DNA of 64,000 nt from Escherichia coli (GCF_029227855.1 NZ_CP074356.1), one strand, 5' to 3'; shown: positions 2,921-52,502, numbered from the stretch's first letter. Program-made: numbers and translations. The notes: generated by a model not told the origin, from the sequence alone.

Positions 2921-3835
2921 TTACTGCAGCAGGCTGGAAACCATGCTGGACATGCTGTTGGACTGTTTCAGCATGGTGATGCCGGTCTGCATCAGCACCT
3001 GTTGTTTGGTCATGTTGGACGCTTCCGTCGCGTAGTCGGTATCCATGATGTTACCGATAGCAACTTCGGTGTTGTCCTGCATGCTGGTCAGGTTATTAGC
3101 CGTGTCGTTCAGACGGTTGATAGACGCACCCAGTTTGGACTGGATCTGAGACACGTCATCCATCGCGGTAGAGATGCTGGTGATCATCTGGTTAGCCGAG
3201 CCAGACGCAGTCAGCTCAGTACCGCCAGAAACGCCTGCGGTGCCCGTGGTGTCAGCCTGATCCGCACTAAAGGAGCTGCTGATAGCAGAAAGATCAGTCA
3301 CCAGGGTATTCAGCTGGCTTGAAATATTCACGGTCATGGTGTCGGAAGATTCCGCGCCCACCTGGAAAGTTACCGCGCTCTGGAACAGACCGTCAGTACC
3401 GGTGTTGCTGGTGCCGGAAACACCGAACAGGTTGGTGCCGCCGTAAGTGGTGTTTTGCAGCATGTCAGACATCTGCTGGCCCAGTTCGTCGTATTCGTCC
3501 TGCATCGCCTGCAGGTCGTCGTCGCTGTAGGTGCCGTTCGCTGCCTGAGTTGACAGGTCTTTCATACGACCCAGCACGTCAGACATTTCGTCGAACATGC
3601 TGTCAGCGGTTTGCAGCATCGCGGTGGCATCATTGATGTTGCTCAGCGCCACCCCCATACCGCTGGACTGTGCTGTCAGACGGTTAGCAATTTGTTTGCC
3701 TGCGGCGTCATCGGCAGAAGAGTTAATCCGGTTACCTGTCGCCAGGCGTTCCATAGATGTAGACAGAGAAGAGCTGCTTTTGCTGATTGCATTAACGGCG
3801 GCCATTGAGGCGTTATTGGTGTTAATAGATAACAT
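2921..3835 (-). CDS. lafA: lateral-type flagellin (Flag-2 LafA), 304 aa
   Basis: ORF track; start placed at internal ATG giving MLSINTNNASMAAVNAI... (flagellin N-terminus) with AGGAG Shine-Dalgarno; ends ...SSLLQ; the longer track ORF (from 3901) is an upstream in-frame extension. Confidence 0.9.
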   Translation of the reverse strand: MLSINTNNASMAAVNAISKSSSSLSTSMERLATGNRINSSADDAAGKQIANRLTAQSSGMGVALSNINDATAMLQTADSMFDEMSDVLGRMKDLSTQAANGTYSDDDLQAMQDEYDELGQQMSDMLQNTTYGGTNLFGVSGTSNTGTDGLFQSAVTFQVGAESSDTMTVNISSQLNTLVTDLSAISSSFSADQADTTGTAGVSGGTELTASGSANQMITSISTAMDDVSQIQSKLGASINRLNDTANNLTSMQDNTEVAIGNIMDTDYATEASNMTKQQVLMQTGITMLKQSNSMSSMVSSLLQ

Positions 3836-4271
3836 GATACTGCTCCTTGGGATTAATCGTTTTCGTTTCGATACCCTGTAAAAACGACACCTCGGGAGCA
3901 AACTTAAAACCGCCGTTAAAATTTTTTCGCCACGTATTATCCGATGCCACTTTTAGCTAAAAAAAAACAGAGTTTAAATTCAGATAAAAAGATTATTAGC
4001 AATATCTGCCACATGGCCAGGTATCAAAATATGTCTTTATCAATTGCTTGATATAGTTAAGATTATCATCAATTACCGCGTTTTCTTATCAATGTACTGA
4101 TGCCAAAATTTACATTGCGTTGCAAATAGTACACATTTGGCTATTGTACCTGTCCTGTCATTTCGTTACATTTCCACGCTATATAGTGATTAAGAATAAT
4201 CTTATCACCATAAAATTATTAATTATCACGCAGAAAAATCATCTTCTCAGGGACGTATAAGACTGTGCTTT

Positions 4272-5165
4272 ATGCAAAGCACTATCAGGAAACATTTATC
4301 CCTTGCTAAGGTAAACTCAACTATGAGTATTATTATCAACAACTGGCGGATGGACCCGTCGCTTAATGCCTTAATACATTGCGAAACGGGTGAAACACGT
4401 CGTCTCGGCGAATACCATTTTATTTTGCTGGAAACATTAGCAAAAAATGCCGATGTGGTTTTATCGCGATCTTATTTATGTGCCGAAGTATGGAAGAACC
4501 GCATTGTCGGCGGTAACAGCCTGCCGACGGCGATCCACGCTCTGCGCGTTGCCATTGATGATGACGGCAAGCAACAGAACATTATTAAAACTATCCCGAA
4601 AAAAGGGTACCTGTGCAATAAAGAGTATGTGTCTTTGCCGGAGTCATCGCCTGCGGAAGCGCTGATTATTACCGACCAGATACAGGAAACAGTACCAGAA
4701 GAGATATCTTCTACAACACCGCCTGTGCCTGTTAGAAAAAAACATAAAGGACTGATGGGGTTAGCGTTGACCGCGGCTGTTATATTTATTGGCTCGACCG
4801 TGGGGTATTCACACTTGAAAAGTACACCTGACGCCCCGCAACTGGTAAAAGAGTCAATTAACAGTCCAAGAATAAAAATATTTCATCTTAGTTCTGGAAA
4901 AGAAAATAATTCCGCACCGTTACTGTCACAAACCCTCGCACCAGGAAAAGACAAACTCGATAATTTATTGTCAGCGCATAATATGACAATGACAACCTAT
5001 TATAAATATGTTCGTAACCGACTGGAGAGTGATATTGTTCTGCGCAACCAGTGCAATGGTAGCTGGCAATTAACCTTTAATGTGGATGAGTGGCAGAATA
5101 GCGATATTAATAGCGCGATGTATCAGAATTTAGAGAAGTTGTTAAATACTGTGCAGAAATGCTGA
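4272..5165 (+). CDS. ToxR/CadC-like membrane-anchored transcriptional regulator (winged-helix OmpR-type DNA-binding domain, one TM segment, periplasmic domain); possibly the Flag-2 lafZ
   Basis: ORF track; N-terminal region ...YLCAEVWKNRIVGGNSLPTAIHALRVAIDD... resembles trans_reg_C winged helix; hydrophobic stretch GLMGLALTAAVIFIGSTVGY; AT-rich gene and upstream region. The true start may be the ATG at 4323. Confidence 0.6.
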   Translation: MQSTIRKHLSLAKVNSTMSIIINNWRMDPSLNALIHCETGETRRLGEYHFILLETLAKNADVVLSRSYLCAEVWKNRIVGGNSLPTAIHALRVAIDDDGKQQNIIKTIPKKGYLCNKEYVSLPESSPAEALIITDQIQETVPEEISSTTPPVPVRKKHKGLMGLALTAAVIFIGSTVGYSHLKSTPDAPQLVKESINSPRIKIFHLSSGKENNSAPLLSQTLAPGKDKLDNLLSAHNMTMTTYYKYVRNRLESDIVLRNQCNGSWQLTFNVDEWQNSDINSAMYQNLEKLLNTVQKC

Positions 5166-5180
5166 CGAGTGCCAATATCA

Positions 5181-5213
5181 GCCGGATGCGACGCTAAAGG
5201 CGTCTTATCCGGC
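5181..5213. repeat. REP (repetitive extragenic palindromic) element
   Basis: gccggatgcgacgctaaaggcgtcttatccggc, close to the enterobacterial REP consensus; sits between convergent genes. Confidence 0.6.
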
Positions 5214-5219
5214 TGATAA

Positions 5220-6197
5220 TTACCCCAATAAATTCCTCACCGTCTGACTGGAAATTCGCGCCTGACCATTCACCGCCTGCAATAAAACTTGATAGTTATG
5301 ATTGGCGCTATCCAGCACGCCGCCGAGATTTTCCGACGCCTGCACGGCGCTTTCCGTTTGCGGGAAGCGCGACATGCCGTCGATCAACTGCCGCGCCTTT
5401 TCCTGCTGTACCGCCATCTGCACACGCTGCTGATTAATGCTTTCTAACGTCTGAGAAATCCCCGCTCCGCCCTGTTGCAGGCTTTGCACTAAGCGGTCCG
5501 CCTGCGACGGTTCGGCAAAGGTTTTTAGTGGCATAAACGCTGATTTATCACCATCGGTGCGCACGCTTAGGGTGCTTTCAATGTTGGGCCACTGTTTTTC
5601 AGTGGTGGAGAAACTTATACCATCGGCGTTTTGATGCATCTGCACGCCCACGCGGCGCAGGGCGTTGGTCAGCCGCGTCTGGTACTGCCCAGCGCTGTCA
5701 TCCTCAGACAGCATCACCGCCGAAAGCTGAGTCTGCCGCCCGTCAGAGACGCTGAACATGCGCGTTCCCGGCGTGGGATTGTGTACGAGATTCGCCAGAT
5801 CCGGCGAGTGAAAAGTCACCCGCGCTTCCCCCTGCAACACTGGCTGCAACTGGCGGTCCACCGCACCGCCGGAAAGCGCGGTGCGTTTGTCCAGCATCTG
5901 CATCAGCGCCGAACTCTGCGCCTGCCCGCCCTTACGCTGGCTATGACGATAATCGAGCAACTGCTGCTCCAGTTGCCCGAGATAGTGATCCGCCTGCTGC
6001 AACGTGGTGAGCTGGTCGTTAAGCTGCACGCTGTAACGCTGCGGGCGAGTGGTAATCAGCGGCGAGGCCGGATATTCACTCGCCGTCGCCGGGAGTTTTT
6101 GCCGCACCTCCTGAGTGGGCGCAACGGTTGACGACGATACCGCAACGCTATGCGCGCCGCCGGTGGCGAGTGACGAAGATGTAAATCCGACCTGCAT
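5220..6197 (-). CDS. hypothetical Flag-2 protein, 325 aa, with flagellar axial-protein-like C-terminus (possibly lafW)
   Basis: ORF track; C-terminus ...NHNYQVLLQAVNGQARISSQTVRNLLG resembles the C-terminal helix of flagellar export substrates; directly downstream of flgL in the same orientation. Confidence 0.4.
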   Translation of the reverse strand: MQVGFTSSSLATGGAHSVAVSSSTVAPTQEVRQKLPATASEYPASPLITTRPQRYSVQLNDQLTTLQQADHYLGQLEQQLLDYRHSQRKGGQAQSSALMQMLDKRTALSGGAVDRQLQPVLQGEARVTFHSPDLANLVHNPTPGTRMFSVSDGRQTQLSAVMLSEDDSAGQYQTRLTNALRRVGVQMHQNADGISFSTTEKQWPNIESTLSVRTDGDKSAFMPLKTFAEPSQADRLVQSLQQGGAGISQTLESINQQRVQMAVQQEKARQLIDGMSRFPQTESAVQASENLGGVLDSANHNYQVLLQAVNGQARISSQTVRNLLG

Positions 6198-13547: not shown

Positions 13548-14261
13548 TTACGCCACATCACTGTCGGCATCGGGTACGCCAAACTGGCTAATCATGGTGA
13601 ACGGCACTTCGCCCACGCCTGCAACATTGAGCACCGGAGAGCTGCCGTCGAGCGGGATGCGTACATCTTCCACTTCGCCGGAAACTTCAATCGGCACCTC
13701 TTCTTCCCCGGTGTTGGTCACCACCGAGACGTCGTAATCACCCGGCGGGATACCGTAATCCGCCGGATTAATCGAGAAATCCACCTGGCCTGGCCCGACG
13801 GACGAACTGCCTTCCGGGATCAGCGACACCGTATAGTCATCGCCTGCGGCATCGGTAAAGTGGAGATCGGCGGTGGTACAGGCGTCGTCAAGCGTGGCGC
13901 GACCATTAATGGTCTGGTCGCTCACCTGCAAGGCGGTGGTCTGCACCATAATGTCGTCACCCACCAGGTTGCCGAGCGCCATTACCTGAATGTTGCTCAT
14001 CAGCACCGCGTTGGTGTTGGCCTGCACGCTCATCTCTTCCATCATCGCCACCTGCGCCATCGACGAAAGCTGGTCGATGTATTCGGTGGCGTCAGTCGGG
14101 TCGGTCGGGTCCTGGTTTTGGATCTCGGCGACAAACAGCGTCAGGAAGGTATCGACGGGCGAGCTATCGCTGCTGCTTGTCGTGTCGCTGGCCGCCACGT
14201 TGTTGCTTTCCGCCGTGGCGGTCGGCTGCGGCGATTGCGCATTCAGCGCCAGGGTATTCAT
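13548..14261 (-). CDS. lfgD: hook capping/assembly protein FlgD (Flag-2 LfgD)
   Basis: ORF track, 237 aa; FlgD-like N-terminus (…FLTLFVAEIQNQDPTDP…). Confidence 0.8.
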   Translation of the reverse strand: MNTLALNAQSPQPTATAESNNVAASDTTSSSDSSPVDTFLTLFVAEIQNQDPTDPTDATEYIDQLSSMAQVAMMEEMSVQANTNAVLMSNIQVMALGNLVGDDIMVQTTALQVSDQTINGRATLDDACTTADLHFTDAAGDDYTVSLIPEGSSSVGPGQVDFSINPADYGIPPGDYDVSVVTNTGEEEVPIEVSGEVEDVRIPLDGSSPVLNVAGVGEVPFTMISQFGVPDADSDVA

Positions 14262-14692
14262 CAGGCTTCTCCCAGTTTCAGCAGGCTTTGCTGCATACTT
14301 TTCACGTTGTTGAGCACATCGACGTTGGTTTCAAAATCGCGCGAGGCCGACATCATGTCCGCCATCTGTTCCACCACGTTGACGTCGGGATACCAGACAT
14401 CTCCGTTAGCATCCGCCAGCGGCGAATGCGGTTCATAGCGTTTCACCGCCCCGCCGGTTTGCAGCACGTCCTGCACCTGCACGCTGGCACCGTCAATGGC
14501 ATGGCGATGTGTACCCGCCAGCAAGCTGTGGTGATACACCGCCGCAAACACCGGGCTGCGCGCTTTATACGCCTGCGCCTCGCTGCTGGCGGGTGCATTG
14601 GCATTCGCCAGGTTACTGGCAACGGTATTCAGACGTAGCGTTTGCGCTGTCATCGCCGAACCGGAAATCTGATAGATATCAGTAAATGACAT
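14261..14692 (-). CDS. lfgC: rod protein FlgC (Flag-2 LfgC), apparently intact
   Basis: ORF track, 143 aa, MSFTDIYQISGSAMTAQTLRLNTVASNLANA...; no frameshift visible. Confidence 0.9.
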   Translation of the reverse strand: MSFTDIYQISGSAMTAQTLRLNTVASNLANANAPASSEAQAYKARSPVFAAVYHHSLLAGTHRHAIDGASVQVQDVLQTGGAVKRYEPHSPLADANGDVWYPDVNVVEQMADMMSASRDFETNVDVLNNVKSMQQSLLKLGEA

Positions 14693-16773: not shown

Positions 16774-17703
16774 ATGAGTTTTATTGAATGTTACGAACCG
16801 GAATACGTGCGCAATTTTATGACGCAATATCCCGATTCGCCTTTGTACATCCGCAAGGTGTGGAAAAACGAGATTCGCCAGAGCCTGATGCTGACAGAGC
16901 CAGAAAGCTGCGAAGCGGTGCTCAACGATGCCAGGGCCTTTGATTTACAGCTCACCTACCGCCCGGCGGAAGATAATGCCGCAGAACTCTCCGCGCGCGA
17001 TGCGATAGTAAACCAGGTCATTTTGAGCACCCTTACGCTCCCCGATTTACCCCCGGAGCTTTCACTGTACGCCGTCGGGATTTTGCTCTCCCGCGCCAGC
17101 AAAATGCCGGGCAGAGACGGAGATATTCTTGCCCGCTTGACGACGCTGCCACAGGCGCTGGCCGCTCATGCACAAAAAGGCACGCTACAGGCACAGTTCG
17201 CCCAGTTGCCGCCTGTACCACAGCTGGCGCGCCAACTGGTGACGCTGCTCGGCAGTTGTGCGTTTGACTGGTCGATTCTGCCGGAAAGCCCGCGCAAAAC
17301 TTCCCTGCCGTTGCAGATGCCTTTGCTGGCGCTACATGACGCCAACAGCGAAGCCCTGTTGCAACAGCAGCTTCAGGCACAGTGGCAAACCACCTGGCAA
17401 CAGCATTTTGCCACCGCGCCCTGGATGATGTGTAACTGGCTGATTTACCGCGTTTACCATGAGGTGATTGGACAGGCAGACGGAGCAGATTATTGCCCGC
17501 TGGTGTGCGATTTTTATTTTATCCGCACGTTAATCAGTTTATGGACGCTGGATGGTTCTCCGCTGCGGAAGGAGGATATTTTCGCCCTTTTTGCGGTGTT
17601 TGAACGCTGGCGAGAGAGTGAAAATGCGCTGTTTATTCGCCAGCAAATTCAGTCGTTATGTGCCGCCGACCCGCTGCTTTCAGCGTTTTCGCTGCTGACG
17701 TGA
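16774..17703 (+). CDS. hypothetical protein, about 309 aa, in the flgA-flgM-flgN operon context
   Basis: ORF track (16735-17703); start placed at the ATG at 16774 (MSFIECYEPEY...) with a GGAAG Shine-Dalgarno; I recognise no family. Confidence 0.5.
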   Translation: MSFIECYEPEYVRNFMTQYPDSPLYIRKVWKNEIRQSLMLTEPESCEAVLNDARAFDLQLTYRPAEDNAAELSARDAIVNQVILSTLTLPDLPPELSLYAVGILLSRASKMPGRDGDILARLTTLPQALAAHAQKGTLQAQFAQLPPVPQLARQLVTLLGSCAFDWSILPESPRKTSLPLQMPLLALHDANSEALLQQQLQAQWQTTWQQHFATAPWMMCNWLIYRVYHEVIGQADGADYCPLVCDFYFIRTLISLWTLDGSPLRKEDIFALFAVFERWRESENALFIRQQIQSLCAADPLLSAFSLLT

Positions 17704-17717
17704 AGCCGCTCTCGATC

Positions 17718-17753
17718 GGTCCCCTCGCCCCTTCGGGGAGAGGGTGAGGGGCA
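17718..17753. repeat. GC-rich imperfect palindromic intergenic repeat, copy A
   Basis: ggtcccctcgccccttcggggagagggtgaggggca; its reverse complement aligns closely with the copy at 27433-27474. Confidence 0.6.
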
Positions 17754-17809
17754 AAGCACGCACAGCCCTCCTTACCCATCAAATTAACCCCTTAACTCAC
17801 CTAAACACC

Positions 17810-20281
17810 ATGCCAACACCAACCCTCATCAAAACACTCGCCACTCACCGCGAAAAACCGTTCGTCAGCGTCGTCACGCCCACATGGAACCGTAGCGCAT
17901 TCCTGCCGTACCTGCTCTATATGTACCGCTATCAGGATTACCCGGCAGACCGCCGCGAACTGGTCATCCTCGACGACTCGCCGCAAAGCCATCAACACAT
18001 CATCGACCGCCTGACCAATGGCACACCGGAAGCCTTTAACATCCGCTATATTCATCACCCGGAAAAACTGCCACTGGGCAAAAAACGCAACATGCTCAAC
18101 GAACTGGCGAGCGGCGAATACATCCTCTGCATGGACGATGACGACTACTACCCGGCAGATAAAATCTCTTACGCCATCGCCATGATGCAAAAACACCGGG
18201 CGCTCATCTCCGGTTCCGACCAGATCCCCATCTGGTACAGCCACATCAATCGCATCTTCCAAAGCCGCAGCTTTGGCTCACATAACATCCTCAACGGCAC
18301 CTTTTGCTATCACCGTAACTACCTGAAAAAGCACCGTTACGACGATGATTGTAATTTAGGCGAAGAGAAAAGTTTCACCAACAATTTCAGCGTTAACCCG
18401 CTACAACTGCCCGGCGAGCGCACGATTCTGTGTATCTCGCACAGTCACAACACCTTTGATAAAGATTTTATTCTCGGGGCTAGCACGCCAGTAAACGCGG
18501 CGCTTACGGATATCGTCCGCGATCCGCTGCTGCGCAATGCTTATCTGAGTCTGCATAACGCCACTCATCACCAGGCGATCGATCAGGTCGTACTGATCAA
18601 TCTGGATAAACGCCCGGATCGCTTACAGCAGATCCGTGAAGAACTCACATTGCTGTATATTCCGCCTGAGAAGATCACCCGCCTTGCCGCCAGTGAAAAT
18701 GAAAACGGTCAACGGGGTCGCCGCCAGTCACACTTGCAGGCGCTGCGCCTGGCGCAACAGCACGGCTGGCAAAACTACCTGCTGCTGGAAGATGACGCAG
18801 TTATTCTCAAGCAGGAGAAACATATTCAGGTACTGAACACGCTGCTCGCGAGCCTGGCGAAAATTCCCTGGCAGGTGATGATCCTTGGCGGCGAAATTTC
18901 GCAGGGAACGATGCTAAAAAGTTTGCCGGGGCTGGTGCACGCGCGGGACTGCCGCAAAGTGTGCGCTTATCTGGTGAACAGTCGCTACTACCCGCAACTG
19001 GCGCAGCAGATGAGCCACAATGAACACTCGCTGGAAGACGGCTGGCAGCCGCTGCTACGCGCCGACAAATGGCTGGCCTGTTACCCGAGCCTTAGTTATC
19101 AGCGACCGGGCTTTAGTGATATCGAGAAAAAAGTGACCGACAACATTGCTCACTATTTCAATAAGTTACCCGTTATCACAAAGCCATCCGCATTACCCAT
19201 CGCCGACACCATCGGCTTTTTTATGGAAACCTCCTTCCACTACGCGCTCTACCGCCCAATCATCACTGCTCTACAGGTGCAGGGGCAGAGCTGCACGCTG
19301 GTGATCAATGACCGCGTGTTTAAACCGTTTCTTGATGAGATGCTGGAAACACTGAAAAACATCGACGATCCGCAGCTTAAAGGAATGCGCTTATCTGAAA
19401 TGCAGGCACACGGTCAGCGGGTGAAATGCCTGGTCAGCCCCTACCACACGCCCGCGCTCAATGGCCTGGCAGCGGTGAACGTTCGCGCCATGTACGGCTT
19501 AGCCAAAGAGACGTGGAACCACGCCGACTGGAACCGTTTTTATCAACGCATTTTGTGTTACAGCCACTACAGCCAGCGGGCGCTGGCGCATTTCGGCAAT
19601 GCAAAAGCAGTCGGCAACCCGCGCTTCGACGCCTGGCATAACGGCACGTTTGCCCGCACTCTGCCGGAAAATATTCAACCCGATTCCCGTAAACCTACGG
19701 TGCTCTATGCCCCCACGTTTGGCGCATTAAGCTCCCTGCCCCACTGGGCAGAAAAATTAGGCCGCTTAAGTGGCAATGTGAATCTGATTTGCAAACTGCA
19801 CCACGGCACCTGCTCGCGCCCGGAAGAAGCGGCATCGCTGGCCCTGGCGCGCAGGCATTTAAAACAGCGCACCGACTCCGCCCGCCACACGCTGGCGCTG
19901 CTGGCAAAGGCCGATTACGTGCTGACCGATAACAGCGGCTTTATTTTCGATGCTATTCACGTTGATAAGCGGGTGATCCTGCTCGACTTTCCGGGCATGG
20001 CAGCGTTGCTCGACGGTGAGAAAAGTTACTCCACGCCGGAGAGCGCCGATCAGCAAATCCGCGAAATATTGCCGGTGGCTCATGATATGGCAGAGTTGCG
20101 TTACTTGTTGTCAGAGGCGTTTGACTGGGGGGCGGTGCAGGCGCGGCTTACGAAGATTCGCCATCACTATTGCGATGCGTTTATGGATGGCAAAGCGGGA
20201 GAACGGGCGGCGATGGTGATTGTGGAGGCGCTGGCGGACAAGGAATCGTCAGGGATATGTCGATATAATTCGATTTTTTAA
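17810..20281 (+). CDS. multidomain glycosyltransferase, about 823 aa: N-terminal GT2-like, central GT25-like, C-terminal CDP-glycerol glycerophosphotransferase (TagB/TagF-like)
   Basis: ORF track (17744-20281); start set at ATG 17810 (MPTPTLIK...). N-terminus VSVVTPTWNRSAFLP...LDDSP...CMDDDDYY (DXD motif); middle VVLINLDKRPDRLQQI...LLLEDDAVI; C-terminus TVLYAPTFG...KLHHGT...VLTDNSGFIFDAIHVDKRVI. Domain calls by eye, unverified. Confidence 0.7.
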   Translation: MPTPTLIKTLATHREKPFVSVVTPTWNRSAFLPYLLYMYRYQDYPADRRELVILDDSPQSHQHIIDRLTNGTPEAFNIRYIHHPEKLPLGKKRNMLNELASGEYILCMDDDDYYPADKISYAIAMMQKHRALISGSDQIPIWYSHINRIFQSRSFGSHNILNGTFCYHRNYLKKHRYDDDCNLGEEKSFTNNFSVNPLQLPGERTILCISHSHNTFDKDFILGASTPVNAALTDIVRDPLLRNAYLSLHNATHHQAIDQVVLINLDKRPDRLQQIREELTLLYIPPEKITRLAASENENGQRGRRQSHLQALRLAQQHGWQNYLLLEDDAVILKQEKHIQVLNTLLASLAKIPWQVMILGGEISQGTMLKSLPGLVHARDCRKVCAYLVNSRYYPQLAQQMSHNEHSLEDGWQPLLRADKWLACYPSLSYQRPGFSDIEKKVTDNIAHYFNKLPVITKPSALPIADTIGFFMETSFHYALYRPIITALQVQGQSCTLVINDRVFKPFLDEMLETLKNIDDPQLKGMRLSEMQAHGQRVKCLVSPYHTPALNGLAAVNVRAMYGLAKETWNHADWNRFYQRILCYSHYSQRALAHFGNAKAVGNPRFDAWHNGTFARTLPENIQPDSRKPTVLYAPTFGALSSLPHWAEKLGRLSGNVNLICKLHHGTCSRPEEAASLALARRHLKQRTDSARHTLALLAKADYVLTDNSGFIFDAIHVDKRVILLDFPGMAALLDGEKSYSTPESADQQIREILPVAHDMAELRYLLSEAFDWGAVQARLTKIRHHYCDAFMDGKAGERAAMVIVEALADKESSGICRYNSIF

Positions 20282-29893: not shown

Positions 29894-30676
29894 ATGCGCA
29901 CAAGCGACGTTACGCAACTGATGGATCTGGCGCTGGGGCTGTGGTTTCCCTTCGTGCGCATTATGGCGTTTCTGCGCTATGTGCCGGTGCTGGATAACAG
30001 CGCCCTGACCGTGCGCGTGCGGATTATTTTGTCGCTGGCGCTGGCAATCATCATCACGCCGTTGATCCCCCATCCCATTCCCCACGATCTGCTTTCACTC
30101 AACAGCCTGATCCTGACGGTGGAGCAAATTTTATGGGGCATGTTGTTCGGGCTGATGTTTCAGTTTCTGTTTCTCGCGCTACAACTGGCCGGACAAATTC
30201 TCTCGTTCAATATGGGGATGAGCATGGCGGTGATGAACGACCCGAGCAGCGGCGCATCGACCACCGTGCTGGCGGAGTTAATCAACGTCTATGCGATCCT
30301 GCTGTTTTTTGCCATGGACGGGCATCTGCTGCTGGTAAGCGTGCTGTATAAGGGCTTCACCTACTGGCCGATTGGTAACGCGCTGCATCCGCAAACCCTG
30401 CGCACCATCGCGCTGGCCTTTAGCTGGGTGCTGGCGTCCGCATCACTGCTGGCGCTGCCGACCACCTTCATCATGCTGATTGTGCAGGGCTGCTTTGGCC
30501 TGCTCAACCGCATCGCGCCGCCGCTGAACCTCTTTTCGCTCGGCTTTCCCATCAACATGCTGGCGGGGCTGGTTTGCTTTGCCACCCTGCTCTACAACCT
30601 GCCGGATCACTATCTGCATCTGGCGAATTTTGTGTTGCAGCAACTCGACGCGCTGAAAGGTCACTATGGCGGATAG
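29894..30676 (+). CDS. lfiR: export apparatus protein FliR (Flag-2 LfiR)
   Basis: ORF track (29843-30676); start at ATG 29894 immediately after the fliQ stop; polytopic membrane protein. Confidence 0.85.
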   Translation: MRTSDVTQLMDLALGLWFPFVRIMAFLRYVPVLDNSALTVRVRIILSLALAIIITPLIPHPIPHDLLSLNSLILTVEQILWGMLFGLMFQFLFLALQLAGQILSFNMGMSMAVMNDPSSGASTTVLAELINVYAILLFFAMDGHLLLVSVLYKGFTYWPIGNALHPQTLRTIALAFSWVLASASLLALPTTFIMLIVQGCFGLLNRIAPPLNLFSLGFPINMLAGLVCFATLLYNLPDHYLHLANFVLQQLDALKGHYGG

Positions 30677-31805
30677 CAGCAGCGAAGAAAAAACAGAGAA
30701 ACCCTCGGCGCAAAAGCTGCGTAAAGCGCGTGAAGAGGGGCAACTGCCGCGCTCGAAGGATATGGGGCTGGCAGCGAGCCTGTTTGCAGCGTTTGTGGTG
30801 ATCTCCAGCAGTTTTCCGTGGTATGCCGATTTTGTGCGCGAGAGTTTTATCAGCGTGCATCAGTACGCGCAGGAGATTAATAACCCGCAGGTGATCGGTC
30901 AGTTTCTGCGCCACCACCTGTTAATTCTCGGCAAGTTTATCCTTACGTTGCTGCCGATGCCCGCCGCCGCGCTGCTCTCTTCGCTGGTGCCGGGCGGCTG
31001 GCTGTTTCTGCCGAAAAAAATCCTCCCGGATTTCAGCAAAATTAGCCCGTTAAAAGGCATTGGGCGTCTGTTTTCCAGTGAACATCTGGCGGAAACGGGA
31101 AAGATGACGGTGAAGTCTGCCGTGGTGCTGGTGATGCTGTGGGTAAGCCTGCGCAATAACTTTGCCGCCTTTCTCGGCCTGCAGGCGCTGCCGTTCAAAC
31201 TGGCGATGAATGACGGTTTGTCGCTCTACGCCAGCGTGATGCGCAACTTTGTCATCCTGTTTATTTTCTTTGCGCTTCTCGACGTGCCGCTGGCGAAAGC
31301 CCTGTTCACCAAAGGGCTGAAGATGACCAAACAAGAACTGAAAGAAGAGTACAAAAATCAGGAAGGCAAGCCGGAAGTGAAGGCGCGCGTGCGGCGGCTG
31401 CAACGGCAGCTGGCGATGGGGCAAATTCGCAAAGTGGTGCCAAAGGCCAACGTGGTGATCACCAACCCGACCCACTACGCCGTGGCGTTGCAGTATGACC
31501 AGTCGCGTGCCGCCGCGCCGTTTGTGGTGGCGAAAGGCACCGATGAAATCGCCCTCTATATTCGCCAGGTCGCTGCTGAAAGTCAGGTGGAAGTGGTCGA
31601 GTTCCCGCGGCTGGCGCGCTCGGTTTACTATACCACTCAGGTGAATCAGCAAATTCCTTTTCAGCTTTACCGGGCTATCGCCCACGTTCTGACCTACGTC
31701 CTGCAAATGAAACACTGGCGCGAGGGCGCACAGCCGCGCCCGGCCCTGAACAGACATATTTCCATTCCCAAAGAGGTGCTTAAACTGGATGGCGAAAACA
31801 ACTAA
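30666..31805 (+). CDS. lfhB: export apparatus protein FlhB (Flag-2 LfhB)
   Basis: ORF track, 379 aa; conserved NPTH autocleavage motif (…VVITNPTHYAVAL…). Confidence 0.9.
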   Translation: MADSSSEEKTEKPSAQKLRKAREEGQLPRSKDMGLAASLFAAFVVISSSFPWYADFVRESFISVHQYAQEINNPQVIGQFLRHHLLILGKFILTLLPMPAAALLSSLVPGGWLFLPKKILPDFSKISPLKGIGRLFSSEHLAETGKMTVKSAVVLVMLWVSLRNNFAAFLGLQALPFKLAMNDGLSLYASVMRNFVILFIFFALLDVPLAKALFTKGLKMTKQELKEEYKNQEGKPEVKARVRRLQRQLAMGQIRKVVPKANVVITNPTHYAVALQYDQSRAAAPFVVAKGTDEIALYIRQVAAESQVEVVEFPRLARSVYYTTQVNQQIPFQLYRAIAHVLTYVLQMKHWREGAQPRPALNRHISIPKEVLKLDGENN

Positions 31806-42143: not shown

Positions 42144-43263
42144 CTCCCCGCAAGGACTGACGCCAGATAGTTTCTGTCCATGGCTGCTTTTCGCATCTTA
42201 CGTCTTAACCCTGCCTTGAATACCTTATCATTCGTCAAAATATTAATAGCGATGTGCCGTATCCCTGAAAATAATTCTGCTGCATTTCCTCTTCTTATTT
42301 TGCAGTCGTCTTCATTCATTACCACGTCCAGACGCCAGTGCAGCTTATTCTCCACGTGCCAGTGGTTTCGGATTGCTGTGGCGAACTTCTCTGCGGTTAA
42401 ATCAGCAGAACTAATATAATATCTGACCGCCATTTCTGGCTCTTTCTTTTGTTCTGCTATTATTGACCGAAAGGAGACTGCCACGCATAATTTCTTCAGA
42501 CCTTTCCATTCAAACGTGAAATCAATAAGTTCATCAGGGACATCGCAAACAATGTGAAGACGGATTTCTTCTCTGCCGTGACTCTTTTCACTCATTGCGT
42601 AACTGTCATGCTCTGGATTATTTAATTCTTTCAGCGGAAATTCTCGAAGGCTTTATTTAGCCGCCCCTGGTTTCCTTTTACAGCGAATAAATAATCACCT
42701 CCCTGTTTTTGTATCTTCTCTGCAATATCTTTCTGGCAACCCATCGCATCAGTTGTGATGATTTTTCCTTTAATATCCAGCATGTTAAGAAGTTCTGGGA
42801 TAGCTGTAATTTCATTGGATTTCTCATCCGTCCTGATCTGTCCGATGACCAGACTGTGCATTGTTGAGAACGCACTAATGACATGAATCGCTCCCTTGCG
42901 GCGACTCTTGTCATAAGAATGCCGGAGTGTTTTTCCATCAATTGCGATGACGTCTTTATCATCTGAAGTATGGCAATCTCGCATCCAGTTAATAAAGCAC
43001 TCGTGAAATTTTGCAGGACTGATACAGGATACAACTCTGGCGATGGTATCGTGAACAGGAATACCATTTTAAAAATCACCGTATTGTTTTAAAAAATCGA
43101 GATGTGTTTCCCCAAAATCCTCTATATCTTCCCAACCTTCCGCACCCGAAATAACAGCACAAATAGTCAACAGTAGAATATCCGATAATTTATGTTCCAC
43201 TTTCCAGGCTTGTCTGTAATCGGGGATAATAGAAATATGCCCCATCAATTTTTTAAGTTCTAT
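42131..43263 (-). mobile_element. ISAs1-family (H-repeat) transposase gene, inactivated
   Basis: Track ORFs 42631-42984 and 42131-42595 are consecutive parts of an ISAs1/H-rpt transposase in different frames; hand translation of 43263-42985 gives the N-terminus with ATA in place of the first ATG (an in-frame Met codon remains at 43245-43243), and an in-frame TAA at 43071-43069. Confidence 0.8.
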
Positions 43264-43483
43264 TTTGTTCTCCTTAATTATGTAAGGAGTATTTGATCAT
43301 GTATAAGCAATAAAAAACAGCTTTAGGTAATGAGGAATATCTCAATTTTTAAGCATAAAATGCGAATTATTTAGTACAAAAAAGCAGCGTTACGTGATCT
43401 TTCCCTGCACTTCACCCTAACTTTAATTTAACTTCAAGAAGTATTAAGGCCTCAATAGCGAACTTAATACTTCTTAAAGAATA

Positions 43484-43861
43484 TCACTCCTGACCAAAAT
43501 CTTTCCACACTAATGCATGAGACTTTGATTTATCACCCAAAAATTTACTTACATCTTTCCAAAGTAAAGAATTGCTATCGGTCGCAGTGACTATTGCCTC
43601 TATAAGCCCTGTAGCTACAACTGTGGCCAATTCATCATCAATCGAGACCATACCATCTTCGACATGTTTAAATATTTTTTCTCTTTCAATATCACCCATT
43701 TCATAAAAATTTTTTACAATCGTTTTTCCAATCTGAGAGAACAACATAACCACCGGTGGAGTTTCTGGATGCCAGTATTCATTAGCTAATGAGACTGTCT
43801 CAGACAAAACAGTGGAAAACGATGCCATTTTTTCTATATAATTAGCAATATATTGGTTCAT
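43484..43861 (-). CDS. putative immunity protein for the Rhs C-terminal toxin, 125 aa
   Basis: ORF track; small AT-rich ORF whose ATG overlaps the rhs stop codon; classic effector-immunity arrangement; family unknown. Confidence 0.5.
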   Translation of the reverse strand: MNQYIANYIEKMASFSTVLSETVSLANEYWHPETPPVVMLFSQIGKTIVKNFYEMGDIEREKIFKHVEDGMVSIDDELATVVATGLIEAIVTATDSNSLLWKDVSKFLGDKSKSHALVWKDFGQE

Positions 43862-46800
43862 TACTTGCCTCCCAAAGCATTCTGTAAATCCTGAAGAACG
43901 TTTTCTGCTGCTGCTCGATCCCCTGGAGATGCTGTTGGATTCTTATCCAACCAATCCTGTAAAGCCCTTGTATAATCCTGTGCTTTCAATACATGTCCTC
44001 TACCACCAACTTTTTCACCTGTGGCCAATTCATAACGAACAGCATCTGCTGTGCTTCCACTTCCTACTTTTGCATTTGGCCGATAAAGATCGTCTATAAT
44101 ATTTTTCAAATTTGAATCTGTAACGTCAGGTTTTCCCATCTTCTGTCGCAATTCATCTTTATACCGTTCATGCTGCATACGATCTCTTGCGCTATTCTCA
44201 TCTTCTGGTCCCCATCCTCCCGGGCTTCCCGTACTGCCACCACCCAGGCAGTTCTTCTCTTCCTCCGTCAAATCCTTCCCGACATTTGGATTCTCTTTTG
44301 ATGAATCATCATTTCCAAACACGCTGGAAAAAGCACCATAGGGATCTCGCCAGAATTCCATTTGACTTTGTGCATTTAATAATTCGGCTTCACCCTGCAT
44401 CTCCATACTTTTCTCAATCGCGTCCCCAACAGCCTCGCGATTGTTGTATATTATTATACCACCACCAATAACCACCGTACCGACTGCCGCACCGACTAAC
44501 ATCCCCGGAGGGCCTCCTACCGAACCGATCTCTGTACCTACTTCAGAACCAGTTCCCATGGCAGTTAATGCTCCTGCGCCCAACGCCGCACTTAATCCCA
44601 GCGGATCCAGCCGTTGCACCGGGTTCAGTGGATACGCATACAGGTTCCATCCCCCCTTCAGCCCAATCGGATCCTGGGTGATATACCTCCCCTGTAGCGG
44701 GTCATAGTACCGGTGACGGTTGTAGTACAGCCCCGACTCCTCATCATACTGCTGCCCCGGCAGACGGAGTGACTGTTGAAGGTGCTGCGTGCTTTCCTCT
44801 CCCAGCAGGTTTCCCCACTCGTCATACTCCCCGCGCCACGCCGTTTCCCCTTCCGGGCTGATAAGCGCCTGCGGCAGCCCACGGTGGTCACAGTGGTAAA
44901 GATGAAGTTTCCTCTCCGGGATGTATTCCGCCTCCAGTTGCGCCGCCATCTGTTCCGCCGTCAACCCACACTGTGCAAGCCACTGCTGGCTTTCTTCACT
45001 CACGCTGCCCTGCCGCAGTTCCCGCTCCAGCCTCCCCAGCATCACCGCCAGCTCCGCCGGTAGCGTCACACCCGTGTCCTCCTGCAACACCTCCGCCAGG
45101 CTACGGTGCCGCGCCTTCGCCTGTTCGCCATTCTCTGTTTCGATTCTCAGGAGCGGCGTGAAGCTCCCCGGCTGGTATACCGTCTGGATACGCGTGGTGT
45201 CGGTCTGTACCGTCGTCAGCCTGTCGCCGTCCCACCCGTACCAGGTCACCTCCGGTTTACGCGACAGCGACATCCACCCCGTCAGGTCACGCTCCCGCCG
45301 CCACACCCGTTTTCCCGTCCGGCGGCCCAGCGGGTCATAGAGGTAGCGGCTCTCCACCTGTGGCTCGCCGTGCTGTATCCGCGTGTAGAACACCAGGCGG
45401 TGCTGGCTGTCGTAATGGTAGTGGTGCGTCCGCTCGTCGTGCATCCGTATCACCCCTTCCGGGATACGGTCCGTCTTCTCCGCCAGCCTGCCGTATTCAT
45501 CGTAGCGGTAGACATAGTGCGCATCTTCCGTGATGCGGTTATCCGGCCACGCCGTGAGGGTGCTGTCCGGGTGCAGTTCCGGGTCCGGCAGCCGGTTTCC
45601 TGCCGGGTCCGTCGCATACGGGATATCAATGTCCAGGTTCGCTGCCGTGGTGTGGACGCCCGTCAGCCTTCCCGTGTCGCTGTAACGGTACTCCCGGCTC
45701 TCCTGCGGGCCGCTGATGCGAATTAGCTGTCCGTTGTCGTTCCAGTCGTAGTCACGGTCAAGCTGCGGAAGGTTCAGGTGCCTGCTCCGGAGCTGGCCGC
45801 TGGTATTCCAGGCGGTGGCAAGCTCATATGCCTCCCCGCCGAAGCTGCGGGCCGTCTCACGGTGCAGCCGGTCCCGCGTGTACTCGACCAGTGGCGTACC
45901 ACCCAGCTTCATTCCCGCAAGATAACCGCTGCCATACGTCAGCCACTCCACCGGCGGCAGACCGTCCAGCTCCTGACGGGTCGCCAGCCCCTGTTCGCTG
46001 TACGCGTGCTTCGTCTCATGCTCCCACAGCATCTCCCCCGTCTCCGGGTTCTCCACCGTCTGCCGTTCGCCCGTCAGGCGGCCTTTATCGTCGTGGCCGT
46101 AGTGGACCGCCACACGGTGGCCTTCGCTGATATGGCTGATTTCTGTCAGCCAGCCGTGCTCATCATACTGCCACTGCTCCGCCGGGTCGCCGTTCACCGT
46201 CCGGTGCGTGATGCGGTCCGACGCATCGTAATGCCAGAGGGTGATAAGTCCCTCGTCTTCACTGTGGACAAGCTGCCCTGTGGCGCTGTACCGGTAACGC
46301 TGCGTCCTGCCGTCAAAGCCGCGCTGCTCCGTCAGCCTGTCCACCGGGTCATACCGGAACGTGGACTGGCTGCCGTTCTCGTTGGTCAGCACGGTGATGC
46401 GCCCGGCAGCGTCATACCCCATGCTGCGCGTCAGACCGCCTTCCGTCACACTCACCGGACGCCCGCGTTTATCATATTCGATGGTGCTGCGTTTACCGTC
46501 CGGTGATATCGTTGCTGTCAGGTCGCCTGCGGCGCTGTACTCATAACGGGTTTCACGCCCCTGCGCATCCTTCTGACTGACCAGTTGGCCTCGCGGGTTA
46601 TAACTGCTGTAAGTGCTGATGCCTTCCTCCCGGTGAACGGCGATTTGTTGACCGTACCGGTCATACTCATACCGCGTCATGTACCCCGAGCAGTCCGTGA
46701 AGGCCCGAAGCTGACCGTACCGGTTTCGCGTTATTCTCCGCGTCACCCCGATTCCGTCTTCCACCGCGCCGGGCAGGCTACTGCGGGGGGAGTCATAAAA

Positions 46801-50786: not shown

Positions 50787-51305
50787 TTATGCTTCCAGCG
50801 GTGCGCGCCAGTCGTCGGCACCGGAGGTGCCAGACTTGACGTGTTCCCACTCTATTTTGCGGTAGGCCAGTGAAACTTCGAGCAACTGGGTGAACTCGCG
50901 TTTCGCCGGATCCTGGCAATGCGGCATATGCAGTTTCATATCGACAATCGTCGAATCGGTCAGGCGGGTGGTGAAATAATGCTCCTGTTTGCCTTCCACA
51001 GAGGTACGCCACCAGTGAAGTTCAGTGGTTGGCAGCATTTCGCCGGAGGCCAGTGCGTTGTACATCAGCGGAACAGCTTTGTTCAGCGCCACGGTAAAAA
51101 TGAACGGCTTGTGAGCACGCTGACCCGCAGGCTGGCCGGACTGAGGATCGGTCGGGACAGTAACGTTATGCAGGAATTCCTGCACCAGCATCTCGTCTTC
51201 GTGCCCCTGCACATAGATGTTGCCGACAGAATCAGCGGTAAATGCACCTGCAGTAATATTTCCCTGGGTCTGACCAGTGATGGAGATATAACACGGTGTT
51301 GGCAT
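50787..51305 (-). CDS. hcp: T6SS tube protein Hcp (TssD)
   Basis: ORF track, 172 aa, MPTPCYISITGQTQGNITAGAF... Confidence 0.9.
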   Translation of the reverse strand: MPTPCYISITGQTQGNITAGAFTADSVGNIYVQGHEDEMLVQEFLHNVTVPTDPQSGQPAGQRAHKPFIFTVALNKAVPLMYNALASGEMLPTTELHWWRTSVEGKQEHYFTTRLTDSTIVDMKLHMPHCQDPAKREFTQLLEVSLAYRKIEWEHVKSGTSGADDWRAPLEA

Positions 51306-52001
51306 TTGTAAACTCCTTGTTAACGTGGTTAATTACTACTTACAATGACCTGCCGTTAATCCCAGACAGGCAGATGCAGCTCACTTCACGGAACCGCATC
51401 ATTTTTCAGTATTTTTTACATACAAACCGAGCTAGAATTTACGGTTGTCGTAAAAACTATTTTTAAAATCATTAAATCTCTTATTCAGCAATAAGTTAAT
51501 AATATATATCTGGATAACCACACCCAACTATTCAAAGTCCGTATTGCCTCCATAAAATGGCCAAAGCTGAATCATGAATAAATATTGTATTTATCCTTTC
51601 TGAATTATCATTTTGATAATTTTTGAGATATTCCTTAAAAATACCCACTTAATCAATCACAAAACAAATATATAAACAAGCAATCATCAGATTAGCTTAT
51701 GTTTAATGAAATTATTTTATAATTCAATAAGTTACACAAAGTCTCTGTATTTAAATTATTGCCATAATACACCTGACGCGAATTGCACAGGTTCACACAA
51801 TCTATTTAACGCTTGCAGAATACCCCTCTTTACGATCGATAAAAAGTCCTTTTCTTATTTATTTTGAAGCGTAGAATGCGGGGTGATGAAGGAGTGGTGA
51901 TTTTATTTTCACCGCCATTATGGCGGCATTGCCGATATTTTTTTGCGGTACAAATATGCCGTGTTCATGGCCTGTACGAGATAACATGACGGATCACTTT
52001 T
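51306..52001. promoter_or_regulatory. AT-rich divergent control region between hcp and tssB
   Basis: About 700 bp, strongly AT-rich, between divergently transcribed hcp and tssB; GATC sites at 51835 and 51991; specific promoter elements not resolved. Confidence 0.4.
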
Positions 52002-52502
52002 ATGAGCAAAAAATTTGAAGGCAGCGTCGCGCCTCGCGAGCGTATTAATATATCGTATGTCCCAAAAACAGATGGCCAGACGGCTGAAGTTGAACTTCCG
52101 CTTAACATGCTCGTTGTCGGCGATACCGGAAATACGCAGGAAACATCCCCACTGGATGAACGTCAGGCAGTTTCCGTTAACAAGCACAATTTCGGTGCAG
52201 TGATGGCTGAAGCAGCCATTGGCCTCAATTTTACTGTCCCCGCCACGCTGAAGGGAAGCACAACAGACGATGAACTGAATGTGGCGCTGAATATCAAATC
52301 ACTGGATGATTTTTCACCAGATAGCGTGGCCCGGCAGGTTCCGGAAGTGAATAAATTGCTGGAACTGCGTGAAGCACTGACTGCACTGAAGGGGCCGATG
52401 GGTAACCTTCCGGCATTCCGTACCCAGCTCCAGGCATTGCTGGAAAATGAAGAGTCCCGCGAGCAGTTGCTCAAAGAAATCGGCCAGGTGAGCAATAAAT
52501 AA
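52002..52502 (+). CDS. tssB: T6SS sheath small subunit TssB (VipA)
   Basis: ORF track, 166 aa, MSKKFEGSVAPRERINISYVP... Confidence 0.9.
   Translation: MSKKFEGSVAPRERINISYVPKTDGQTAEVELPLNMLVVGDTGNTQETSPLDERQAVSVNKHNFGAVMAEAAIGLNFTVPATLKGSTTDDELNVALNIKSLDDFSPDSVARQVPEVNKLLELREALTALKGPMGNLPAFRTQLQALLENEESREQLLKEIGQVSNK

Follow-up and report, generated by a model that had tools for sequence, protein, structure and literature searches.

Several bacterial sensor-regulators are encoded by two overlapping genes, a design described for vtrAC, tcpPH and psaEF (Kinch et al. 2022, PMC9214523). VtrA of the VtrA/VtrC pair of Vibrio parahaemolyticus (Li et al. 2016, PMC4933562) and ToxR are both bile sensors of Vibrio. 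VtrA depends on VtrC, and ToxR needs ToxS for full activity and stability. Known systems of this co-component superfamily regulate type III secretion systems (T3SS), pili and adhesins. Flagella and LafZ are unmentioned in Kinch et al. (PMC9214523), and the E. coli strains screened there are without Flag-2; the unnamed Yersinia pair BZ17_3283/3282 of that study could be a LafZ ortholog. In the flagellar literature, lafZ is the gene between lafW and lafA, a 'putative transmembrane regulator' that occurs in Flag-2 loci only and is without a primary-flagellar counterpart (PMC6993521, PMC7526173). It is regarded as a conserved Flag-2 marker, and the adjoining interval between lafW and lafZ was described as the 'VR2' cargo region, which is present in 81% of loci, averages 0.6 kb and holds one hypothetical protein (De Maayer et al. 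2020, PMC6993521).

The lafZ gene and its place in the Flag-2 locus

The window is the whole stretch of DNA analysed here, 64 kb of an E. coli chromosome, and the Flag-2 (lateral flagellar) locus fills its positions 1 to ~33,900. The region 3700-5400 is 99.9% identical to that of strain JNEC-KY178 and is matched in 1277 of 5426 complete E. coli genomes (~1/4). The gene order in the window, FlgL, LafW, lafZ on the opposite strand, LafA, FliD and FliS, is the same as in strain 042. The strain 042 gene at the lafZ position is also divergent from lafA and encodes a 280-aa product, identical to that of the window at 272 of 280 residues (97%) without gaps. This identity and the naming of the intervening gene in the literature establish that the gene at 4323..5165 is lafZ of the E. 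coli Flag-2 locus, a name that the first-pass annotation had offered uncertainly and that proves right (PMC6993521). The placement of the gene beside the flagellin gene, made in the same annotation, also holds, given the match of LafA to its lateral flagellin model (Table 1). lafZ itself is not new, having already been named; what the analysis adds, in a useful and testable form, is an assigned fold, another reading of the VR2 'cargo' gene and the finding that one lineage has lost a partner gene. The name has reportedly been in use since 2005, from Ren et al., and Flag-2 is said to have been defined in strain 042.

Strain 042 has a RelE/HTH toxin-antitoxin pair between lafW and lafZ, where the window contains only a REP-like hairpin, and its lfgC is frameshifted, whereas lfgC in the window is intact (14261-14692). 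All other Flag-2 genes are likewise intact in the window, including lfhB (30666-31805), which is frameshifted in the nearest RefSeq genome, KY178 (99.95% identical). Profile searches with LafW matched no Pfam or NCBIfam family, and the protein carries three RefSeq names in different genomes (flagellar hook-associated protein, hypothetical protein and FlhF). Although the mechanical ORF of lafA begins at TTG 3901, the gene truly starts at ATG 3835, which AAGGAG precedes; the alignment with the LafA model sets in at ORF residue 23. Elsewhere in the locus, the VR1 region (16774-20281, between lfgN and lfiJ) contains genes for a lysine-N-methylase and a ~830-aa glycosyltransferase, followed by a small FAD-synthase/cytidylyltransferase-like gene (names from the RefSeq annotation of a near-identical strain). 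These genes are presumably flagellin-modification machinery.

Table 1. Features in and around lafZ, in window coordinates (residue numbers refer to the 280-aa protein)
Feature	Position	Strand	Remarks
lafZ CDS	4323..5165	+	280 aa plus stop; maximal ORF from 4272, that ATG unconserved
lafA, lateral flagellin gene, divergent neighbour	2921..3835	-	NCBIfam lat_flg_LafA_1, 664 bits vs cut-off 440
lafW, convergent neighbour, 325 aa	5220..6197	-	Flag-2-specific protein; flgL, flgK and the remaining cluster genes come next
Shine-Dalgarno-like AAGG	4308..4311	+	Conserved among alleles; spaced 11 nt from ATG 4323
Cytoplasmic winged-helix (OmpR/CadC-type) DNA-binding domain (predicted), residues 3-98	4329..4616	+	PF00486; alignments with ToxR 8b4b and CadC 5ju7
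Juxtamembrane linker, residues 99-142	4617..4748	+	Hypervariable, disordered; ends in basic VRKKHK
Single transmembrane helix, residues 143-163	4749..4811	+	Hydropathy, homologs, AlphaFold
Periplasmic sensor domain (predicted), residues 164-280	4812..5162	+	beta2-alpha-beta3-alpha (VtrA/ToxR fold, from model)
Cys244 codon	5052..5054	+	beta4-beta5 turn; invariant in 48 homologs
Cys280 codon	5160..5162	+	Last residue; invariant in 48 homologs
AT-rich divergent control region, lafA to lafZ	3836..4322	.	About 34% GC
Candidate lafA promoter, TTAAGTTT-N11-GTCGTTTT	3881..3907	-	Both boxes invariant; 11-nt spacer variable between alleles
Conserved block B2, GATTATTAGCAATAT	3991..4005	+	Imperfect second copy at 4059-4073
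Conserved block B3, AAAATTTACATTGCGTTGCAAAT	4105..4127	+	Contains TTGC-GTT-GCAA
Conserved block B4, CATTTCGTTACATT	4159..4172	+	Repeats TTACATT of B3
REP-like palindromic hairpin, core GCCGGATGCGACGCTAAAGGCGTCTTATCCGGC	5176..5218	.	-31.8 kcal/mol, z -6.95; occupies the space between lafZ and lafW, which converge

Domain architecture and sensor fold of LafZ

The 297-aa ORF of the first-pass annotation is present exactly (4272..5165, plus strand); its start codon needs correction. The ATG at 4272 is unconserved: E. whittamii has ATA at this position and Pseudocitrobacter a deletion. In contrast, the alleles all retain AAGG-N11-ATG at 4323. The RefSeq start is also at 4323, and the alignment with the ToxR DNA-binding domain starts at residue 3 of the form that begins there. 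For these reasons, LafZ is most likely a 280-residue protein translated from ATG 4323.

LafZ consists of an N-terminal winged helix, a linker, one transmembrane helix and a C-terminal sensor domain. In formal domain prediction, the winged helix matched Pfam Trans_reg_C (ORF residues 42-114) with an E value of 1.5e-13 and 51.1 bits against a cut-off of 26.2, and AlphaFold modeled the domain with pLDDT above 90. The closest solved sequence is the DNA-binding domain of V. cholerae ToxR (E 3.6e-8), followed by CadC (2.2e-6); the earlier label 'ToxR/CadC-like' is therefore right at the class level. A reading of LafZ as a response regulator (OmpR/PhoB-type) was rejected, as the protein contains no receiver domain, the models align by their C-terminal effector part only and the winged helix is N-terminal. 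The linker is unalignable and varies in length among homologs, and its residues 117-140 have pLDDT below 50. Topology prediction yielded one hydrophobic segment, at ORF residues 160-178, with a Kyte-Doolittle mean of 1.85 over 19 residues; elsewhere in the protein, no such 19-residue mean exceeds 1.4. AlphaFold places a helix at residues 143-163 (Met18 numbering), and an equivalent hydrophobic segment above 1.6 is observed in 46 of 48 diverse homologs. Four K/R (VRKKHK) lie among the 15 residues that precede the transmembrane helix, and the 15 residues after it are net neutral. From this charge asymmetry, the N-terminus with its winged helix is predicted to be cytoplasmic and the C-terminal 117 residues periplasmic. 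The winged helix and the single transmembrane helix had thus been correctly recognized in the earlier reading; of its ~130-aa periplasmic domain, the location stands and the length is corrected to 117 residues (164-280).

The sensor domain matched no Pfam family and no PDB sequence, and the matches of LafZ to solved sequences are confined to the DNA-binding domain. A homolog search over 1.84 billion representatives found 47 relatives at E<=1e-30, and an alignment of 48 full-length members, with identity down to 27%, was built. The invariant positions among these 48 homologs are in the winged-helix core and at the periplasmic cysteines C244 and C280. The model of the sensor domain from the 48-member alignment (pLDDT 91.4, pTM 0.83) displays the order strand, strand, helix, three strands, helix. 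A Foldseek search with this model gave weak hits, with no match at E<=0.001 and with VtrA ranked second. On the modeled topology, the sensor domain has the VtrA/ToxR fold. HHalign detected no signal between the LafZ and YqeI sensors. The two invariant cysteines probably form a disulfide that stabilizes the periplasmic domain.

This architecture suggests how LafZ may operate. The cytoplasmic winged-helix domain would bind DNA, the disordered linker and the one transmembrane helix would tether the protein to the inner membrane, and the 117-residue periplasmic alpha/beta domain would set the activity or stability of LafZ according to a periplasmic or envelope condition. Apart from LafK and LafS, no protein has an obvious role in switching Flag-2 on. 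The only Flag-2-specific protein that appears built to read the periplasm is LafZ, which is therefore a natural candidate input for the timing of lateral flagella.

Flagellar association, composition and control region of lafZ

LafZ loci were surveyed with one genome per species, which gave 80 loci from Enterobacteriaceae, Erwiniaceae, Yersiniaceae and Budviciaceae. Flag-2 context is observed in 61 of them and a divergent adjacent lafA in 48. Across the four families, lafZ keeps one position and orientation, between lafW and a divergent lafA. In Silvania hatchlandensis (L054, 3692-8500), a cassette of LafZ and the partner gene described below lies between orthologs of LafK (58% identity) and LafS (48% identity), a sigma-54 activator and a sigma-28 factor, respectively, and flagellar structural genes are missing from the 6 kb to each side. 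This remnant suggests that LafZ belongs to the regulatory core of Flag-2. The remaining 19 family members, mostly from Erwinia, Pantoea and Winslowiella, lie outside flagellar loci, and 18 of them have the partner. Cassettes without flagellar context are those at L035-L037, L039, L041, L043, L044, L049, L051, L056, L057, L062, L064, L068, L071 and L080. The neighbors at the Erwinia locus L035 are cupin, ATP-grasp, GntR-aminotransferase and GGDEF-EAL genes, and the ORF at the lafW position there, considered as a LafW relative, is unrelated to LafW. At L036, L041, L043, L049 and L057, the LafZ frame extends beyond the usual C-terminal Cys.

The first-pass annotation had described the gene and its upstream region as AT-rich, and the composition bears this out. 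The GC content is 34.2% in the intergenic sequence 3836-4271 and 42.5% in lafZ (GC3 0.44), compared with 54-59% (GC3 0.68-0.73) in lafA, lafW, flgL and fliD. The lowest 500-nt window has a GC fraction of 0.34, against a mean of 0.546 (sd 0.06) for the whole window (z about -3.4), and the Flag-2 locus has no major low-GC island other than the lafA-lafZ block. Two more strongly AT-rich islands occur outside Flag-2 at 42200-44200 and 51150-52200 (minimum GC 0.32 and 0.30); the former covers the 3' end and downstream sequence of the gene for a 1499-aa Rhs core protein, and the latter lies in the adjacent type VI secretion cluster, between hcp and tssB. A low GC content is a family-wide trait: over 61 loci, lafZ is below the flanking flagellar genes by a mean of 7.8 points, with extremes in Escherichia and Citrobacter.

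Comparison with Pseudocitrobacter reveals a mosaic. LafA, FlgL and LafW are 92-99% identical between the two, in contrast to 62-66% for LafZ, and dS is 1.4-2.5 for lafZ and 0.19-0.43 for its flanks. The DNA identity (L012-L014) falls to 0.3-0.8 in a block at ~3900-5000 and is above 0.9 in the flanking genes; this divergent block coincides with the AT-rich block. Simple fast evolution accounts for this pattern less well than allelic replacement or an old polymorphism.

Low GC content and a synonymous divergence from Pseudocitrobacter 5-10 times that of the flanks would also be expected if LafZ were a mobile, fast-evolving ToxR/VtrA-type cassette lodged in the VR2 hot spot. Such a cassette could control non-flagellar genes for adhesins, secretion systems or envelope functions, in line with the targets of known co-component systems, with the members found outside flagellar loci among metabolic and c-di-GMP genes in Erwinia and with the signs of horizontal transfer described for VR2 (PMC6993521). 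We consider this explanation unlikely, as it sits poorly with the fixed position of lafZ across four families, its standing as a Flag-2 marker, the retention of LafZ with LafK and LafS in the Silvania remnant and the conservation of cis-elements in the region common to lafA.

These cis-elements were located by comparing alleles. The lafA-proximal segment 3820-3909 is invariant across alleles and contains the lafA ribosome-binding site and two conserved boxes, which constitute a candidate lafA promoter (Table 1); its motif has no recurrence in the window. A sigma-28 promoter at the same site (3907-3881) was rejected, since 11 of 16 positions agree with the E. coli consensus, which is the chance level and is reached by dozens of chance sites; it is conservation that supports the site as a candidate. 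No sigma-54 promoter was found in the lafA-lafZ intergenic region, and a scan for sigma-70 promoters and terminators returned 9 promoter-like sites, none compelling, against 4.2 expected, and no terminator. Farther from lafA, footprinting across alleles identified blocks B2, B3 and B4 as invariant inside otherwise scrambled sequence. In Citrobacter and Phytobacter, the B3 core recurs at the same distance and orientation in 10 of 10 loci and the B2 core in 9 of 10, against a background of ~1%. The three blocks are obvious candidate binding sites for LafZ or another regulator. A weak sigma-70-like pair (TTGCAA, 16 nt, TATTGT) at 4120-4147 overlaps B3 and might be the lafZ promoter.

Literature searches found no experimental work on LafZ and no H-NS or expression data for Flag-2. 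Genomic context makes control of Flag-2 the most likely function of LafZ, and the control region between lafA and lafZ would be the most plausible site. Its likeliest targets would be Flag-2 promoters, first of all in this AT-rich region common to both genes, where LafZ may counteract silencing, possibly in interplay with H-NS. Specific DNA blocks are now identified in the control region as sites at which this can be tested.

Loss of the partner gene and comparison with known sensors

Downstream of lafZ, 67 of the 80 loci contain a partner gene, which is annotated as 'hypothetical' in public records (L015-L029, L031, L033-L035, L037-L040 and most of L042-L087; for example, L017:6929-7408 and L007:1583-2041). 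In distant homologs, it is a 152-155-aa ORF that overlaps the lafZ stop codon and encodes an N-terminal membrane anchor and ~125 further residues. In ~50 loci, the partner starts at an ATG embedded in AATGAA, the conserved Asn-Glu codons of LafZ, and the invariant Cys follows five codons later. HHalign recognized the Yersinia/Enterobacter-type partner as a homolog of the Citrobacter-type one (96.4%, E 1e-9); two conserved cysteines are present in the Citrobacter type and none in the other. The partner protein matched neither Pfam nor any PDB sequence. Its position suggests that the VR2 'cargo' of most taxa is the partner gene, so that the commonest gene of this region appears to have been misread so far. 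In most Enterobacterales, LafZ would work with a membrane-anchored periplasmic partner, following the 'co-component' design of toxRS and vtrAC.

In Escherichia and Pseudocitrobacter, the partner gene is lost. LafZ of these genera ends in LLNTVQKC, without an embedded start codon, and the gap between lafZ and lafW is 55-61 nt (55 nt in the window). A tblastn search of the 64-kb window found no partner-like ORF, and a REP-like hairpin sits where relatives carry the partner gene; sequence resembling this hairpin occurs in ~1000 more E. coli genomes than those with Flag-2. The term 'one-component' in the first-pass annotation consequently applies to Escherichia only, because the LafZ family is a two-gene cassette in most genera. 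Two further loci, L030 (Enterobacteriaceae RIT691) and L032 (Citrobacter sp. 18056), have ~480 nt between lafZ and lafW, a spacing like that of loci with the partner, but an ORF scan and tblastn both detected none; the partner gene may have decayed there or may start in an unusual way.

Pairwise Nei-Gojobori comparison with other Escherichia and Pseudocitrobacter alleles gave dN/dS values of 0.08-0.20 for whole lafZ, 0.00-0.10 for the winged helix and 0.10-0.15 for the sensor domain. Since these alleles are partner-less, the values indicate that lafZ is under purifying selection after partner loss. The dominant LafZ protein cluster, with 2295 members, is intact at 280 aa; some shortened forms are present in databases.

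This constraint bears on whether lafZ of E. coli is a silent relic. On that account, the protein lost its stability or activity with its obligate partner, silencing, for example by H-NS, prevents expression of the AT-rich gene, and lafZ persists only since the locus is young or rarely expressed. The dependence of VtrA and ToxR on their second components, the hairpin in place of the partner gene, the strongly AT-rich composition and the shortened database forms agree with this account, and in several E. coli strains Flag-2 is commonly regarded as non-functional (PMC3032704). A relic is nonetheless improbable, given low dN/dS in both the whole gene and the sensor, retention of both cysteines and the winged-helix core, conservation of the upstream cis-blocks, the intact dominant cluster and a Flag-2 locus that is fully intact in the window. 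It is far less probable still that E. coli LafZ is half of a two-protein sensor with a partner encoded elsewhere, such as the VtrC-like lipocalin YqeJ or FidL: E. coli genomes have further co-component pairs (YqeI/YqeJ and GrvA/FidL) and the LafZ sensor remains constrained, but HHalign detected no sequence relation of YqeJ to the LafZ partner family (probability <=0.9%, an unsurprising value in a superfamily in which sensors and partners co-diverge rapidly), this co-divergence itself argues against a borrowed partner and the window contains none.

The explanation that we favor, and that we regard as reasonably probable as a whole, is that LafZ is a tethered regulator of the ToxR/VtrA class that senses the periplasm, acts on Flag-2 targets and, its partner gene being gone, works alone in Escherichia and Pseudocitrobacter. 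A broader proposal is put forward more tentatively. LafZ and its overlapping partner may form an unrecognized flagellar branch of the VtrA/VtrC-ToxR/ToxS sensors, a periplasmic heterodimer, possibly lipid- or envelope-sensing, that gates lateral-flagellar expression across Enterobacterales. The VR2 'cargo' would then be its second subunit, and Escherichia and Pseudocitrobacter would have become one-component by deletion of the partner while the VtrA-like domain stayed under selection. If so, the E. coli protein would be a natural experiment on co-component sensors without the ligand-binding half. The partner loss in Escherichia also allows a clean comparison with Citrobacter as to the contribution of the second subunit. 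The assignment to the VtrA/ToxR class leads to testable ideas, namely that LafZ depends on its disulfide, that it depends on a partner and that proteolysis controls its stability.

Among described systems, CadC lends its name to many database records of LafZ ('CadC family transcriptional regulator'), and this identity was rejected: LafZ scores 34.2 bits against a cut-off of 400 for the CadC model NF007540. The CadC sensor is ~3 times larger and has two subdomains, the second of which is helical, in contrast to the single 117-aa periplasmic domain of LafZ, and CadC is tied to cadBA, a link that LafZ lacks. LafZ as a ToxR ortholog was likewise rejected, as sequence similarity is found in the DNA-binding domain only and not between the sensors, and no downstream gene follows; unlike ToxR/ToxS of Vibrio, E. 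coli lafZ has no toxS-like gene after it. The ToxR disulfide joins the two helices of its sensor, whereas in LafZ a bond between the two cysteines would fasten the last residue to the beta4-beta5 turn.

The VtrA/VtrC-type co-component systems are closer in design. They share with LafZ an N-terminal CadC-like winged helix followed by a single transmembrane helix and, according to the LafZ model, a periplasmic beta2-alpha-beta3-alpha core. A conserved cysteine near the C-terminus is a general trait of the co-component superfamily, and LafZ has the C244 and C280 pair; VtrA is without cysteines. VtrA/VtrC is encoded in a T3SS island and lafZ in a flagellar locus, and the adjacent, usually overlapping downstream partner gene of VtrA/VtrC-type systems, for a protein with a lipocalin-like barrel, is missing from E. 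coli. Because its second component is absent there, E. coli LafZ would work like the co-component family while falling short of full membership. The most fitting description of LafZ is that of a membrane-tethered ToxR/VtrA-class transcription factor within the co-component superfamily that, in E. coli, stands without its second component.
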